Shown one piece after another: positions 26,514-34,325 of a DNA stretch of 34,325 nucleotides. The position numbers and the translations under genes were made by a program. The DNA comes from an uncultured Methanosarcinales archaeon (GTDB lineage: Archaea; Halobacteriota; Methanosarcinia; Methanosarcinales; Methanogasteraceae): assembly GCA_965369365.1 (NCBI GenBank), contig CBDUQO010000003.1:1-34325 (forward strand), given 5' to 3'. The notes under the pieces are model-generated. The model worked only from the letters and a program-made list of their open reading frames with translations, ran no database searches and was not told the origin of the DNA. The stretch's first letter is position 1; the number at the start of each line of letters is the position of its first letter.

Positions 26514-29500
26514 ATGGATCAAGAAGAAACATATGAAAAAGTTTGTTCTGAACTTGAATATCATTGCGGGATAATAAAGGATATAGAACAAGCTCACTCT
26601 CCTGTGCAGAGACATCTTTTCTCTGAAGCAAAACGACTAATAAGAAATATTGATGCTATGTATTTCTCAGGTGACGTACCGATCGCCTACTTTAAACTAC
26701 TGTCGTCTGATTTTGACGAAACGGAAATCATAAAGCTTCATCGTCGTGTCTGGAATCAAAGTCGCATCCCTCTTCTTTATGTTATTACTCCTGGTGAGTT
26801 GCGGATATACAATTGCTTTGAAGAACCTGCTAATCCTGAGATCGAAGAATTGGATACACAGAAAAGACTTATCAAACACTTTGATATAGCAGCAGGAATT
26901 CTTGAGGGGCTCAAGAAATTTTCAAAATCTCAGATAGATTCCGGTGCTTTTTGGAAATCGGAAGAAGGGCAGAGATTTCGAAGCGATCGAATGGTGGATC
27001 AGAGACTCCTTAAACACCTTCGTATCACTCGTGAAAAATTGCACGACCAGGGGTTAGAATATTCAGTTATCCATAATCTTTTGGGACGATCTATTTTCAT
27101 CCTGTACCTCGAAGATCGCGGTGCAATTGATAAAGATACATTCTATAATCAATTTTTAGATGGTGCAACAACGTATTCTGATGTGATCAAAGACAAGAGC
27201 GCGGTATATCGATTATTTGAAAAATTGAAAGAAGAATTCAATGGCGATCTTTTTCCTGTGACTGATGAAGAGCGAAACAGCAACGTAAATAGTACGCATT
27301 TGAAACTCATCAGAGAGCTTTTTTATGGGACAGATATGGGTACAGGTCAGCAAACGCTCTGGCGTCCTTATGATTTCGGAGTCATTCCAATCGAACTCAT
27401 AAGTGCGATCTATGAAAAGTTTCTACATAAAGAAAAAGAAAAAGGTTATCTATCAAAAGAAGGTGCTTATTACACACCACACGCCCTTGTCGAATTTATA
27501 TTGAATGAAGTGTTGCCATGGCCAAGTAACCGTGACCATCGGTATGAACTAAGCATCCTTGATCCGGCATGTGGTTCTGGTATTTTTCTTGTTGAAGCTT
27601 TTCGCCGGTTGGTCGCGCGGTGGAAGTTCAGCCATAACGATAAGGACATTTCGATTCCAGAATTGAAGCGCATTCTCACTAATTGTATTTATGGAGTTGA
27701 CATCAACAAGGATGCTATTAGAGTGGCTGCATTCAGCCTGTATCTGGCATTCATGGATTATCTTGAGCCCAAGACGATAGGGGATGAAATTCGGTTCCCG
27801 TATTTGGTATACTGCCCAGAAGATCCAGACAAGTATGGAAAGAATCTGTTTCCGATGGATATATTTGAAACGGTGCCATTCGAGAACATGAATTACGATA
27901 TCATAGTAGGTAATCCACCTTGGAAACGCGATAGTCTTCCTGAACACATATCGAATTATCTTAGTAGCAGAGGTTTTGCTCGGGAGATTGCACAAGCCTT
28001 CCTATGGCGCGTCCGCGATTTTTCGTCCAATGGAAAAATCGCTTTATTGGCAACAAGTAAGATTCTATTCAACACTGAAACAAAAGATTGTCACTTCCGC
28101 AGGGAATTTTTCGGACAAAACTATGTAGAAATGGTTGTAAACTTCTCTGCGCTAAGAAGAACAAAGGGTAAGAAAGGGAGGCAACTTTTTGTATCCGCGG
28201 TTGGACCTGCTACTCTTTTCTTTTATCGTACGAATACACCCGAACAACCTAAATCTGCCATATTGTACTGTACACCCAAACCAACGAGGGCAGATAATGC
28301 ACTACCTGGAATTACCATAGACGCGTCTGAGTTCAAATTTCTACCCAGAATGAAATGTAGCACCTCTGATATGATCTGGAAGGTGGCAATGTGGGGAACT
28401 CAGCGAGATTTGGAGCTTATAGAACGACTCCAAAAATATGATACTTTGACAGCATATTTCGGTTCCTGCAAGAGTGATTTATCGTGGAAAAAAGCACACG
28501 GGTTTCAAACGTCATCCAGCCACAATAAAAACAAACCTAACGATCGCTTATCAAATATGCCGTTCATTGATGCGAAAGACGTCACACGTTTCTGGATAAA
28601 TCCCGATAAAATTACGAAAGTGAAACCAAATGCTTTTTTCAGATTCGGATGCACGGAAACATATTCCGGACCGCACATTATTATAAAAGAAGGGCAGGCG
28701 AATAAGAAGTTTTGTGCCGCGTTTACTGAGCATGATTGTGCTTTCCGCAAGACAATAACTGGGGTGTCCGGACCTTCGGATGAATCTGCTTTGATGAAAG
28801 CAATCACGGCATACCTAAATTCTTCTTTTTCATCGTATTTTCTATTCTTGACCGCTTCAACTTGGGGGATAGAACGTGAAAGTGTATATCCCACAGAGGT
28901 TTTTCGATTGCCGGATTTACCATTTCGTTTTACGGATGAGCAGATAGATAAGCTGGCAGGCAATGTTGATGCGATTGGTAAATTGATGGCAGATGGGTTG
29001 CCTGATACCGATGCGTATATCTGCAAAATCGAAGCTGAGATAGATCAAATTATTTATAAAAGTCTTGATCTGTCCAAATCCGAGCGATTTTTAATCGATG
29101 ATGTACTCGAATATAGTCTGGATTTTTTCCAAGAAGGTGAGAACTCCAAAGCCTGTAACATAGTGGATACTAAAGACCTTGAAGCTTATTCAGAAACGTT
29201 CTGTGATGCGGTTAACAGCATTCTACAATTTGGAGAATCGAGAGCAAAAGCAACGGTTTATCGTGGTGATGCACCACTTCGTGTAGTATCCATTCGCTTC
29301 AACGAAGTTGATGACGAAAGAACTGTAACGGTATCTGATTCGACCGATGAGTTGGAAAATGTTCTATCAAGACTCGACAGGCAGATTATAGAAGAATATT
29401 CCGGAAGTATATATGTTAGGCAAAATGTGAAAATCTATGATAAGAACACGCTCCATATAACAAAGCCTGATGAAAAACGCTTCTGGACTCGTTCGATGGC

Positions 29501-29552
29501 CCTGCGTGATGCAGATGAAACATTAGCTGAAGGATTGCGGCGGAGTAGTTGA
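26514..29552 (+). CDS. Large N6-adenine DNA methyltransferase, type IIG/Eco57I-like, with a TRD region and an apparently degenerate N-terminal nuclease domain
   Basis: GAYYTP, motif I LDPACGSGIFL, YGVDI, motif IV GNPPW, FNGDLF, IPIELISAIYEKF, C-terminal AYLNSS. Confidence 0.9.
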   Translation: MDQEETYEKVCSELEYHCGIIKDIEQAHSPVQRHLFSEAKRLIRNIDAMYFSGDVPIAYFKLLSSDFDETEIIKLHRRVWNQSRIPLLYVITPGELRIYNCFEEPANPEIEELDTQKRLIKHFDIAAGILEGLKKFSKSQIDSGAFWKSEEGQRFRSDRMVDQRLLKHLRITREKLHDQGLEYSVIHNLLGRSIFILYLEDRGAIDKDTFYNQFLDGATTYSDVIKDKSAVYRLFEKLKEEFNGDLFPVTDEERNSNVNSTHLKLIRELFYGTDMGTGQQTLWRPYDFGVIPIELISAIYEKFLHKEKEKGYLSKEGAYYTPHALVEFILNEVLPWPSNRDHRYELSILDPACGSGIFLVEAFRRLVARWKFSHNDKDISIPELKRILTNCIYGVDINKDAIRVAAFSLYLAFMDYLEPKTIGDEIRFPYLVYCPEDPDKYGKNLFPMDIFETVPFENMNYDIIVGNPPWKRDSLPEHISNYLSSRGFAREIAQAFLWRVRDFSSNGKIALLATSKILFNTETKDCHFRREFFGQNYVEMVVNFSALRRTKGKKGRQLFVSAVGPATLFFYRTNTPEQPKSAILYCTPKPTRADNALPGITIDASEFKFLPRMKCSTSDMIWKVAMWGTQRDLELIERLQKYDTLTAYFGSCKSDLSWKKAHGFQTSSSHNKNKPNDRLSNMPFIDAKDVTRFWINPDKITKVKPNAFFRFGCTETYSGPHIIIKEGQANKKFCAAFTEHDCAFRKTITGVSGPSDESALMKAITAYLNSSFSSYFLFLTASTWGIERESVYPTEVFRLPDLPFRFTDEQIDKLAGNVDAIGKLMADGLPDTDAYICKIEAEIDQIIYKSLDLSKSERFLIDDVLEYSLDFFQEGENSKACNIVDTKDLEAYSETFCDAVNSILQFGESRAKATVYRGDAPLRVVSIRFNEVDDERTVTVSDSTDELENVLSRLDRQIIEEYSGSIYVRQNVKIYDKNTLHITKPDEKRFWTRSMALRDADETLAEGLRRSS

Positions 29553-30232
29553 ACATGTTGATGGATATTCAAAACACAATTGGGCGGGCAAGTGACGTTC
29601 TTCCGATTGTTGATTCCAAATTCGAGAAAGCATGCCTCTGGATTATGACCGAAGCCTTCAAACAAATGAAACGAGAAAAACGCTATGATGTAACATGGAA
29701 AGAAACTTGTTTTTCTGCTTGTTTAGTTGGGCACATGCAAAAAATAAGACATGAAAATGATATCGCATTGAGAATCGATCCGGAAAGCCATTTATACCGA
29801 GAAGAGATGTTAAACTGTACTGAAGATCCTGATACTGCTCCCAGAATTGACATTAAAATCTCTGGGGGCTGGGTACACGAGAACGTATATTATGGAATAG
29901 AAGGAAAAGTTTTGGTAGAAAACGATTGGGGAACACGCACTGCCAGTGATTCACGTCGTCGATATATCGCTACTGGAATTGATAATTTCGTCAACGGTAG
30001 ATATTCGGACAAACTGGATATGGGCTGTATGGTGGGATATGTAGTTCAAGGGCGCGCCTCTGGAATTGCCTCAAAAATCAACAATTTGCTGGCACGCGAT
30101 GGACGAAATAAAGAAAAGATGATGAATCCGCACTCAATTAACGGTTGTTCAGATTGTTTTCGGTCAAACCACACACGTACCACGGACAATAAAGAAATAA
30201 AACTCTGCCACGTCTTTTTAACATTTGTTTAA
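29549..30232 (+). CDS. Hypothetical protein, predicted PD-(D/E)xK nuclease
   Basis: E...RIDIKI...GIEGK followed by YI..GIDNFVNGRY and GCMVGYV; TTGA overlap with the MTase stop. Confidence 0.7.
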   Translation: MNMLMDIQNTIGRASDVLPIVDSKFEKACLWIMTEAFKQMKREKRYDVTWKETCFSACLVGHMQKIRHENDIALRIDPESHLYREEMLNCTEDPDTAPRIDIKISGGWVHENVYYGIEGKVLVENDWGTRTASDSRRRYIATGIDNFVNGRYSDKLDMGCMVGYVVQGRASGIASKINNLLARDGRNKEKMMNPHSINGCSDCFRSNHTRTTDNKEIKLCHVFLTFV

Positions 30233-32007: not shown

Positions 32008-34325
32008 ATGAGAAAAGCATTAGTATCTGACATTCTATCACTGACATGCATCGCAGTGATTGTCTTGTCAGGCTGCATCGAGACCGGCACCCTCTCTGAT
32101 AGGGGCAACGATACGCCCGCCGAGGTTGCCGATTACCTGATACTTGCCCCGAAGACACTCTTTGTCGGAAGTGAGAGTTCGATTAGCATGTCCGCGTTTA
32201 CAGGCGACGAACACATCCCCGCCGAACGGCACATTGAGTGCGCGCTTCTGGATAGCAACAAAACTAAAGTTTCTCTCGTTCGCGCATCAACGGGCGAATC
32301 CGGGCACTCGGTCGCACGATTCGAGGTTCCTCTAATCGAGGAAGGCACGTATTCGCTAGTTGCAGAGCCTGTTGGTACTGATGAGTCATACACTGCAACA
32401 GTCAGGGTTTTGAAGAGCAACCCGATCTTTATCGAGACTGACAAGCCAATCTACAAGCCCGGACAGACGATCCACGGCAGACTCCTCCTCCTGAACAACA
32501 ACCTCTTACCACTTGCAGATTCCGTGGAACTGGAGATTGCCGACGCGAAAGGGATCAAAGTCTTTCGGGAGACGCTTGGCACGAATGATTTCGGCGTAGC
32601 CACGTTCGATCTGCCACTATCAACCGAACCGAATCTCGGGACATGGAAGATCAAAGCAGTCTCTGGCAAATCAAAGGCGGTCCTGGATATCCTGGTCGAG
32701 CGCTACGTGCTCCCCAAGTTTGGGATTGAGTCGGATATGGGAAAAGACTGGTTCCTTGTCTCTGACCTGATCACGGGCACCGTCTCCGCGAACTACTTCT
32801 TCGGAAAACCGGTCGAGGGTTCTCTTGAGATCGAGGCGTCAAAGTATGTCGGCACCTGGGAAACTTACGCCACATACAGCGCAATTCTCGAGAACGGCTC
32901 TGCCAAGTTCGAACTACCAGCCGTAAAGTGGATCGCAGGGACTTACGGTGCAGGTGGGCAGGGCAGCCTCATGCTGAACATTTCGGTCACAGATACGGGG
33001 AATCACACCGAGACTACGACAGAACTCCTGAAAATCGTGGAATCGGACATGATTCTCAATCTGATCCCCGAATCCAACATCGTGAAGCCAGGACTCCCGT
33101 TTGAGGTACTGATCGTGACCGAAGACCCTGACGGAAACCCAATCAATGCGGACGTTGATGTGAGAACCACGTTCCGCCAGGAGGGTTACACTGAAACCGG
33201 TAGAGAAGATGCTGTTTCGACTAAAAATGGGGTTGCTATCGTGAGTTACGTTATCCCGGGCAATTGCACAGGCACCCTAATCGAAGCAACATGCTGTGAC
33301 TCAAGCGGCTCAACAGTGTGGCAGTGTGTGGATCTTGATGCTGCGTACTCCCCCGGTGCAAGCTTCATCCACATCGCACAGACGAGCGAGGGCGTGCCAT
33401 ATATCGGCGACACGATCACCTTTACCATACGCTCGACCAACCCCGGCACGGTATTCTATGACATCTACGCGAACGGTAGAACCGTGTACTCGGGCACTGG
33501 TGAGCGATCAGAGATTGCGGTTCGGGTCACGCCACAGATGAGTCCATCTGCAAAGATCGTGGCATATATGATCAACCCGAATTGTGAGGTCTCTGCCGAC
33601 GTCTTACCATTTGACGTTCGTTTCGAGACGAGCGTTGATCTAACGTCGGCTTTTGATAGCGAGACCGTATCCCCGGGTGACTCAGTGCGAGTTGCCTTTG
33701 ATGCAGGGGAAAAGTCGATGATCGGCGTCGCAATCGTTGACGAATCGGTCTATGCGCTGAGTGCTGGCAGGCTCAACCTCAAGCAGGTCTTTGACGAGCT
33801 GGAAAAGCGGTTCATGGAACCTCAGATCGAGATCCATCCGGAATATGGCTATTATGACCGGCGTATCGGAACATACGAGATTCTGGATGATGCAGGCATG
33901 CAAGTGCTCGCATCGTCGTCGTTTAAGATTCCAAAGACGCCTGAGTCGGAAATGCAGGTTCCGGATGCAGTGGGGAAGTGGAAAGGGGGCGCAAACAGGG
34001 AGTTTGCGATGGACGTGGCGGTTGAGGAAAGTTTGGACGGGGCATCGGCGGTGGACGGGATGGGGGAACCTGTGCCCGGTACTGCACCAAACGCGGCAGA
34101 GACTGGCGAACTCGCAGTGGTCAAGCGCGTGCGCCAGTTTTTCCCGGAGACATGGCTCTGGCTGCCGAACCTCCTCACCGATGAAAATGGTCGTACGTAC
34201 ATCGATCTCACCACACCGGACAGCATCACGACATGGCGGCTTCATGCGGTCTCGTCATCAGGTGCGGGCATCGGGATATCAGAGGACAGTCTCACAGTAT
34301 TTCAGGAGTTCTTCCTCGATCCTGA
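32008..34325 (+). CDS. Alpha-2-macroglobulin/thioester-protein family lipoprotein (partial, runs off the window)
   Basis: Open frame from ATG 32008 (GGTGA RBS) to the window edge, 772 codons; lipobox LSGC; FIETDKPIYKPGQ, VERYVLPKF, YFFGKPV, KPGLPF, IVDESV, VRQFFPETWLW, PDSITTW, VFQEFF. Confidence 0.93.
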   Translation, partial: MRKALVSDILSLTCIAVIVLSGCIETGTLSDRGNDTPAEVADYLILAPKTLFVGSESSISMSAFTGDEHIPAERHIECALLDSNKTKVSLVRASTGESGHSVARFEVPLIEEGTYSLVAEPVGTDESYTATVRVLKSNPIFIETDKPIYKPGQTIHGRLLLLNNNLLPLADSVELEIADAKGIKVFRETLGTNDFGVATFDLPLSTEPNLGTWKIKAVSGKSKAVLDILVERYVLPKFGIESDMGKDWFLVSDLITGTVSANYFFGKPVEGSLEIEASKYVGTWETYATYSAILENGSAKFELPAVKWIAGTYGAGGQGSLMLNISVTDTGNHTETTTELLKIVESDMILNLIPESNIVKPGLPFEVLIVTEDPDGNPINADVDVRTTFRQEGYTETGREDAVSTKNGVAIVSYVIPGNCTGTLIEATCCDSSGSTVWQCVDLDAAYSPGASFIHIAQTSEGVPYIGDTITFTIRSTNPGTVFYDIYANGRTVYSGTGERSEIAVRVTPQMSPSAKIVAYMINPNCEVSADVLPFDVRFETSVDLTSAFDSETVSPGDSVRVAFDAGEKSMIGVAIVDESVYALSAGRLNLKQVFDELEKRFMEPQIEIHPEYGYYDRRIGTYEILDDAGMQVLASSSFKIPKTPESEMQVPDAVGKWKGGANREFAMDVAVEESLDGASAVDGMGEPVPGTAPNAAETGELAVVKRVRQFFPETWLWLPNLLTDENGRTYIDLTTPDSITTWRLHAVSSSGAGIGISEDSLTVFQEFFLDP

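Follow-up and report, generated by a model that had tools for sequence, protein, structure and literature searches.

An Animal-Type Alpha-2-Macroglobulin Family Protein with a Predicted Lipid Anchor in an ANME-2c-Type Methanosarcinales Archaeon

Introduction

Bacterial alpha-2-macroglobulins (A2M) of type I, such as YfhM (ECAM) of Escherichia coli and the A2M of Salmonella, combine a lipoprotein signal, a bait, a CxEQ thioester and the logic of a monomeric trap, and are presumed to protect the envelope from proteases. They carry two extra N-terminal MG domains (PMC9156758). Among the human members of the family, CD109 is a membrane-bound protein of the cell surface with a predicted glycosylphosphatidylinositol (GPI) anchor site (PMC7016707), and A2ML1 is a monomer in which inhibition requires covalent conjugation (PMC9156758). 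Here we describe a gene for a member of this family that runs off one end of a 34,325 nt contig (CBDUQO010000003.1 of assembly GCA_965369365.1, hereafter the window) from an uncultured Methanosarcinales archaeon. The type I features listed above recur in its product, in part as predictions, but its domain architecture is that of the animal proteins.

Archaeal homologues have been published, and the gene is a further member of an already annotated protein family. Makarova et al. (2021) reported thioester domains (TED) whose CxEQ motif is intact, from 27 proteins of 24 archaeal genomes, and described several Methanomicrobia proteins, for example WP_015053894.1 of Methanolobus psychrophilus, as close to bacterial ECAM-type A2Ms and probably acquired from bacteria (PMC8416519). 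The A2M/TEP homologues of Halobacteria and other archaea resemble the protein described here in being secreted and in having Ig-like MG domains and a TED with CxEQ, but show varied archaea-specific domain organisations and conflict-system neighbourhoods (PMC8416519); going by that description, the present protein is set apart by its full canonical architecture and housekeeping neighbours. A 2026 review still cites a metazoan-host origin for bacterial A2Ms and places them mainly in host-associated Gram-negatives, and the word 'archaea' occurs in it 0 times (PMC13069473). In the open-access texts searched, including the PMC8416519 supplements as far as these are searchable, we found no paper on a canonical clade with GCGEQ and a catalytic histidine (GCGEQ/His) across free-living archaea and bacteria, nor any linking that clade to animal proteins, and the placement of the clade may be what is new.

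Completion of the Gene

An open reading frame (ORF) of 772 amino acids (aa) with an ATG start occupies positions 32008–34323 of the window (+ strand), is open at its 3' end and leaves the contig. Its absence from the program-made ORF track of the window fits the rule of that listing, by which 3'-open frames are omitted by default. The window is the entire contig C3 of a 2.2 Mb genome in 294 contigs (83.8% complete), and a second contig of 2,207 bases, C271, begins with the last 55 bases of the window. It is the sole contig of the assembly to do so, and the 55-base overlap is unique in the assembly. C271 carries the reading frame on to a stop codon (L003, positions 3–1991), giving a joined coding sequence of 1,417 aa. 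No contig of the assembly overlaps the far end of C271, the last 178 bases of which are single-copy there.

Three independent lines of evidence support the join. A database protein, P0001, is likewise 1,417 aa long and matches the joined product at all but 2 residues; the orthologue is uninterrupted on a 44.6 kb contig of a relative (91.5% identical), as it is in many genomes of the host family; and contigs of about 1.15 kb from RNA libraries (runs X2 and X3, one sample) cover 33475–34319, cross the window end and extend 255 letters past it, the start of the extension matching the unique part of C271. The gene is therefore confirmed as complete and intact across C3 and C271. An earlier first-pass annotation, made from the window alone, had allowed for a disruption downstream, but the frame continues for 1,417 aa to its stop.

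A gene that is split over two contigs and joined by a 55-base overlap might also be an artefact, whether through animal contamination, a C3/C271 assembly chimera or the decay of a pseudogene. We regard this as extremely improbable. Directly upstream lie archaeal genes for a DUF22 protein and Nop5 (opposite strand), in the same order as on the relative's 44.6 kb contig, no stop codon interrupts the frame, and the uninterrupted orthologues, the near-identical P0001 and the junction-crossing contigs all argue against it.

Two minor features of the region were also noted. After the A2M stop, a 67 aa open frame (L003, positions 2005–2205) runs off the end of C271 and has a weak match to RVT_1 (E 1.9e-4, 21.6 bits against a cut-off of 29.6 bits); it may be the remnant or the edge of a retroelement where the contig breaks off. 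One X2 RNA-library contig skips 87 bases within the MG1 region (window 32325–32413, with a side of only 27 letters), which probably reflects either a mis-join or a related strain that differs in length there.

Domains and Motifs of the N-Terminal Half

The canonical (animal-type) architecture of the protein consists of MG1 to MG6 with an inserted bait, MG7, a TED and an MG8/receptor-binding-type domain. The part encoded in the window comprises the following features, with the evidence for each.

32008..32076, + strand: signal peptide (MRK and a hydrophobic core) ending in the lipobox L-S-G-C; translation, modelled helix at residues 3–20
32077..32127, + strand: flexible linker, residues 24–40; pLDDT below 50 at residues 22–36, identity to relatives 0.27–0.46
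32128..32412, + strand: MG1, residues ~41–135, from YLILAPK; start of the amphioxus A2M alignment, strands, invariant P48
32425..32661, + strand: MG2, residues 140–218; Pfam PF01835, 5.6e-24
32701..32913, + strand: MG3, residues 232–302; Pfam PF17791, 1.2e-8
33076..33303, + strand: MG4, residues 357–432; Pfam PF17789, 4.6e-6
33373..33759, + strand: A2M bait-region domain A2M_BRD (MG5 and first part of MG6), residues 456–584; PF07703, 4.4e-22
33898..34146, + strand: bait proper, residues ~631–713; hypervariable, indel-rich, pLDDT below 50
34150..34323, + strand: start of the A2M domain (second part of MG6, and MG7), residues 715–772, with RQFFPETWLW and PDSITTW; PF00207, 2.6e-15

No Pfam model matched the MG1 stretch, and a scan of the window-encoded half against NCBIfam gave 0 families. 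An AlphaFold model of this half, built from a 35-row alignment, has a mean predicted local distance difference test score (pLDDT) of 81.7 and a predicted template modelling score (pTM) of 0.72. It shows a helix at residues 3–20, a disordered linker at 22–36, beta-sandwich MG domains from residue 41 and disorder at 650–713.

All the motifs listed by the first-pass annotation are present in the translation of 32008–34323, far beyond chance: LSGC (residues 20–23), YLILAPKTL (43–51), FIETDKPIYKPGQ (141–153), VERYVLPKF (230–238), YFFGKPV (263–269), GLPF (362–365), VDESV (577–581), VRQFFPETWLW (708–718) and PDSITTW (737–743). In an alignment of 35 archaeal, bacterial and metazoan rows, the columns of the N-terminal half that are invariant lie within these motifs: P48, D145/Y149/P151, Y233/L235/P236, Y263/G266/V269/G271, V577/D578, R709/F712–W716/W718 and P737/D738/I740/T741/W743.

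The low-complexity stretch that had been called bait-like proved real. Among 96 full-length archaeal-type relatives, residues 631–690 are the least conserved internal segment of the protein, with identity of 0.34–0.36 and gaps of 0.20–0.37, compared to identities of 0.86 just before and 0.72–0.74 after it, and residues 650–713 are disordered in the model (pLDDT below 50). Sequence variability and the model together point to an exposed, variable bait within MG6, at which proteases would be expected to cleave.

The published archaeal lipobox motif is [L/V/I][A/S/T/V/I][G/A/S]C (PMC12462473), and L20-S21-G22-C23 fits it, following the modelled helix 3–20, and the lipid is predicted to attach at Cys23. 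Predictions indicate that lipoproteins are common in Euryarchaeota, and the lipidation enzymes AliA and AliB have been identified in Haloferax (PMC12462473). A lipobox occurs in 78 of 107 archaeal-type relatives, 4 others being N-terminally truncated, and in 1 of the 13 remaining rows that are not of archaeal type.

In P0020–P0030, P0035, P0036 and others (ANME-2-type proteins of 1,392–1,398 aa), there is no lipobox cysteine, and a conserved hydrophobic segment at the start of the protein is followed by 'PTITQPISNLINQP'. This suggests another mode of anchoring or secretion in the subgroup.

The Thioester Half

The first-pass annotation predicted that a thioester motif would lie beyond the window, and the downstream sequence bears this out. 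C271 encodes PYGCGEQNM, with Cys926 and Gln929 as the predicted thioester residues, together with the remainder of the A2M domain, a TED (TED_complement, 3.6e-81, 271 bits) and a receptor-binding-type MG8 domain (A2M_recep, 1.2e-12; both Pfam). The two halves of the CUB domain fall within the collinear alignment to amphioxus A2M, and no Pfam CUB model gave a match.

Thioester reactivity is set by a residue some 110 positions further on, which is His in complement factors and CD109 and Asn in vertebrate A2M (PMC7016707). A His at this place yields an acyl-imidazole able to react with hydroxyl as well as amine groups (PMC9156758). In the archaeal protein, His1041 lies 115 residues after Cys926, and it occupies the alignment column that has His in human CD109 and Asn in human A2M. 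GCGEQ and a downstream G-x-x-x-H-x-x-(M/L/I)-x-G-G motif are kept in 120 of the 120 best database relatives listed, all of them full-architecture proteins.

Comparison with Animal and Bacterial Proteins

Four kinds of comparison (Pfam, BLASTP, phmmer and Foldseek) agree that the protein is of animal (A2M/CD109/TEP) type, as had been claimed for the window-encoded half. Searches of all PDB sequences with phmmer (E ≤ 0.001) returned 53 distinct matches for the N-terminal half and 56 for the C-terminal half, all of them eukaryotic (CD109, A2M, A2ML1, C3/C4/C5, cobra venom factor and TEP1), and no bacterial A2M was among the matches of either half at this threshold. P0001 aligns with amphioxus A2M in a single collinear BLASTP alignment over residues 43–1403 (subject start 33; 30% identity, 498 bits, E 3e-155), and the two proteins have the same Pfam set: MG2, MG3, MG4, A2M_BRD, A2M, TED_complement and A2M_recep. 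The best Foldseek match of the modelled half in PDB is human CD109 (E 3.8e-43, TMq 0.71), the top matches include C4b, C3b, C5b and A2ML1, and 50 of the 50 top chains listed are eukaryotic.

The contrast to the E. coli protein is clear. BLASTP of P0001 against YfhM (K-12 record) gave only fragments, of 45.8 and 43.5 bits. In one Pfam scan, YfhM has bMG1, A2M_bMG2, bMG3, bMG5, bMG6, CUB_A2MG and bMG10, none of which occur in P0001, and lacks A2M_recep, which P0001 has. In the archaeal protein MG1 directly follows the signal peptide and linker, with no extra N-terminal MG domain, the thioester motif is CGEQ compared to CLEQ in YfhM, and pbpC, which adjoins yfhM in E. coli, has no counterpart beside the archaeal gene. 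Judged by sequence, the Methanosarcinales proteins are canonical and not ECAM-like, which refines the description of Makarova et al. (2021).

Of the human proteins, CD109 and A2ML1 share with P0001 the collinear canonical architecture, the lack of extra N-terminal MG domains, and GCGEQ with the catalytic His, CD109 being the best sequence match of both the N-terminal half and the TED. Identity in structure-based alignments is nevertheless only about 18–20%, and the predicted anchor differs, with an N-terminal lipobox Cys in the archaeal protein and a C-terminal GPI signal in CD109. The archaeal protein has 14 cysteines and the metazoan rows have 9–14, a comparison of counts and not of positions.

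Host, Distribution and Presence in RNA Libraries

The host archaeon belongs to the Methanosarcinales and is of ANME-2c type (anaerobic methanotrophic). Among records with names, the nearest are metagenome-assembled genomes (MAGs) of ANME-2c and Candidatus Methanogaster (74–95% identity; 25 of 49 loci). Matches to P0001 (E ≤ 1e-30) are present in 23 of 27 genomes of the host family, including the host genome itself (G000); by genus, with G000 excluded, they occur in 7 of 8 (g1), 11 of 12 (g2), 0 of 2 (g3) and 4 of 4 (g4) genomes. Since the gene is intact in 23 of the 27 genomes, it appears to be under selection. Recoding (pyrrolysine) was considered because matches in relatives were flagged with '1 TAG', and was ruled out, as the flags are the natural stops of slightly shorter orthologues.

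Cultured relatives include Methanococcoides burtonii (Q12VC6), Methanococcoides methylutens, Methanolobus psychrophilus and Methanolobus tindarius. Many relatives are already named 'alpha-2-macroglobulin family protein' (NCBI) or 'CD109 antigen' (JGI); the M. burtonii protein (Q12VC6/ABE52600.1) is annotated as 'Protease inhibitor, alpha(2)-macroglobulin-like protein', and AFV24188.1 of M. psychrophilus as 'A-macroglobulin like protein'. The Methanococcoides and Methanolobus orthologues (1,403–1,407 aa) have the same Pfam set, GCGEQNM, the downstream His and a lipobox, are 58–59% identical over the C-terminal half and belong to the same well-supported clade, but the host protein comes from another family (ANME-2c type) of the order. 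These cultured archaea would offer tractable prokaryotic models of the canonical molecule.

RNA-library contigs from three studies lie on the gene; the evidence drawn from such contigs leaves aside their uncovered stretches and the small-share runs X4 and X6–X15. In X1, four of five pieces have at least 99% identity.

Phylogenetic Placement

An exhaustive search with the C-terminal half retrieved 8,360 cluster representatives at E ≤ 0.001. The best 150 of these comprise 53 with GC(G/A)EQ, 93 with CFEQ, 2 with CMEQ and 2 short fragments; in the rows inspected, CFEQ and CMEQ lie at the homologous thioester site, with the exception of P0212, in which CFEQ occurs elsewhere. Names were looked up for 20 representatives. 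Rows with GCGEQ include proteins of Trichoplax, Branchiostoma, Ptychodera, Anneissia, Mya, Potamilus, Thrips and Danionella, and prokaryotic rows include proteins of Undinarchaeales, Acidobacteriota and Armatimonadota. Four representatives (P0174, P0175, P0179 and P0181) are 50–61% identical to genes of Dehalococcoidia and Thermomicrobiales MAGs.

A first tree was inferred from 57 full-length or nearly full-length rows of the 270 listed, together with YfhM as root, fragments and most near-duplicates being left out (IQ-TREE, LG+C20+F+G4 by posterior mean site frequencies (PMSF), short search, Shimodaira–Hasegawa-like approximate likelihood ratio test (SH-aLRT), 58 rows by 1,391 columns). The CFEQ clade branches first, followed by a GCGEQ clade of 48 rows. 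Within the latter, 13 metazoan or eukaryote-like rows form one clade (support 100) that groups with Chloroflexota-type rows (100), and the query lies in a 17-row clade (99), of which all named rows are archaeal (Methanosarcinales, Altiarchaeota and Undinarchaeales) and seven are without names. The planctomycete rows are the sister of this archaeal clade (89). In a second tree of 46 rows (LG+F+G4), which included named genes of Chloroflexota, Hydrogenedentota and Planctomycetota and omitted three long branches, Metazoa, Metazoa with Chloroflexota, and the archaea each received support of 100, and a bacterial sister of the archaea was recovered at 44.5 only. Forcing the 35 prokaryotic GCGEQ rows to be monophyletic cost 49.7 log-likelihood units and was rejected (p-AU 0.0009; approximately unbiased (AU) test, iqtree2, forced against unforced tree, PMSF site frequencies).

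These sequence comparisons robustly indicate that other prokaryotic relatives stand closer to the animal proteins than the archaeal ones do, and that the sampled animal proteins, which do not include C3/C4/C5, attach to Chloroflexota. YfhM sits on a very long branch, and 54 of 58 rows do not pass the composition test. The tree is in essence unrooted, because a root on the metazoan stem would unite all the prokaryotic forms, and the topology does not fix the direction of transfer. The first-pass annotation had set its animal-like reading against the chance that the protein would nest within ordinary bacterial A2Ms, and its reading is supported, with a qualification. The protein belongs to an archaeal clade of its own and lies outside the YfhM type, but that clade sits among bacterial GCGEQ forms, outside the metazoan clade and with no special closeness to animals.

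We consider it possible, though less likely than not, that the canonical GCGEQ/His thioester protein (MG1–8/CUB/TED) was an old prokaryotic invention now found across free-living anaerobic lineages (Methanosarcinales, Altiarchaeota, Undinarchaeales, Planctomycetota, Hydrogenedentota, Acidobacteriota and Chloroflexota), and that animal A2M/CD109/TEP, and hence complement, arose when a Chloroflexota-like bacterium passed the gene once into the animal stem. On this reading the ANME protein would represent a surviving case of the ancestral form, lipid-anchored and CD109-like. If true, such an origin would reverse the long-quoted hypothesis of A2M transfer from metazoan hosts to bacteria, and should a rooted tree with C3/C4/C5 agree, the beginnings of the complement/A2M family could be tested directly. 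The full animal-type architecture is frequent among free-living archaea and bacteria of sediments, unlike the host-associated picture in the 2026 review.

Several variant forms were seen among the more distant relatives. P0210, P0306 and about 90 more representatives form a bacterial clade of proteins of ~1,500–1,900 aa with CFEQ instead of CGEQ at the thioester site, and in the two members scanned a zinc finger of the zf-HC2 anti-sigma-factor type lies at the N-terminus. The combination suggests a membrane-spanning anti-sigma factor with an outer A2M-like module, possibly a protease-sensing switch. P0113, P0115, P0116 and P0120 (loci L041, L048 and L052), of planctomycete type and 1,555–1,655 aa long, have an N-terminal Laminin_G_3 domain (PF13385) before the A2M body, and P0180, an Acidobacteriota-type protein of 1,905 aa, has a C-terminal IPT/TIG extension.

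Proposed Function

From the motifs and the likeness to characterized family members, the protein is probably a Sec-exported, lipobox-anchored, monomeric, covalent thioester protease trap that resembles CD109 and A2ML1; its lipidation, thioester formation, trapping activity and monomeric state are what we infer on these grounds. The mechanism is modelled on the monomeric members A2ML1, CD109 and bacterial ECAM. The Sec signal peptide would export the protein, and a lipid on Cys23 would tether it to the outer face of the membrane. An attacking protease would cleave the exposed, hypervariable bait (~631–713), and the rearrangement that follows would expose the Cys926–Gln929 thioester. His1041 would then attack the thioester to form an acyl-imidazole, which would react with the protease at one of its amine or hydroxyl groups. 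The enzyme would be held covalently and sterically shielded at the cell surface, and envelope proteins would thereby be protected.

Several observations weigh against this proposal or limit its reach. His1041 is of the complement/TEP/CD109 type and not of the vertebrate-A2M type, so that surface tagging instead of inhibition is possible, and insect TEPs, which have the same architecture, are not known as protease inhibitors (PMC9156758). Lipid anchoring is not universal in the clade, as 25 of the 107 archaeal-type relatives have a full N-terminus without a lipobox; most of these belong to an ANME-2 subgroup whose N-terminus carries a hydrophobic anchor. Four of the 27 family genomes, including both of genus g3, have no match to P0001, and all four are incomplete (75–90%). 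No conserved partner or regulator adjoins the gene, only the upstream DUF22–Nop5 pair being kept between the window and the relative's contig. The RNA evidence consists of assembled contigs of RNA libraries, which may contain DNA, and so indicates presence and not proven transcription. The open-access texts searched yielded no biochemical data for any member of the prokaryotic clade.

ANME-type archaea live in cell consortia. This, together with the catalytic His, a feature of complement factors, CD109 and several TEPs that permits hydroxyls as targets, raises the alternative of a complement/TEP-like covalent tagger or adhesin, in which the His-assisted thioester would couple to hydroxyls on viruses or on foreign or partner cells, such as a sulfate-reducing partner. 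The presence of C4b, C3b and C5b beside CD109 among the best structural matches would agree with such a role. We consider it unlikely, since the same orthologue and motifs occur in free-living Methanolobus, Methanococcoides and Methanomethylovorans, which have no obligate partner, and the N-terminal anchor would hold the molecule on its own cell. P0001 also has neither of the domains that are hallmarks of complement C3/C4/C5, anaphylatoxin and C345C/NTR (Pfam, E ≤ 1e-4), and A2ML1 has the His too, yet inhibits proteases (PMC9156758). The hydroxyl reactivity of His-type thioesters (PMC9156758) would equally suit an envelope-building protein, one that uses its thioester once for self-attachment to the glycans or S-layer of its own surface and forms a structural or shielding layer with no protease sensing. 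A large, surface-located protein conserved in the lineage would fit this description, but anchoring is already supplied by the lipobox, and a hypervariable, disordered bait between conserved domains, the signature of a protease trigger, has no role in it; we find this alternative distinctly improbable.

The annotation of a complete, conserved and predicted surface-anchored thioester protein in uncultured methane-oxidising archaea is well supported. The surfaces of these archaea are central to their syntrophic life, and a candidate envelope defence against foreign proteases is therefore of interest.

Gene Neighbourhood

Downstream of the orthologue on the relative's contig are an unassigned 119 aa ORF and genes for a beta-CASP nuclease, a TSP3-repeat protein and a thiamine pyrophosphate (TPP) enzyme, none of them related to the A2M gene. 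Elsewhere in the window, positions 26514–30232 form an island of low GC content (0.36–0.42, compared to ~0.5 around it), with an ORF of 1,012 aa that has N6_Mtase, Eco57I and MmeI_Mtase domains, as in a type IIG-like restriction-modification enzyme, followed by an ORF of 227 aa with no Pfam match. In the syntenic contig of a relative (L006), a diaminopimelate/ornithine decarboxylase-type gene comes directly after Nop5, and because the two genes are adjacent there, the low-GC island looks like an insertion.

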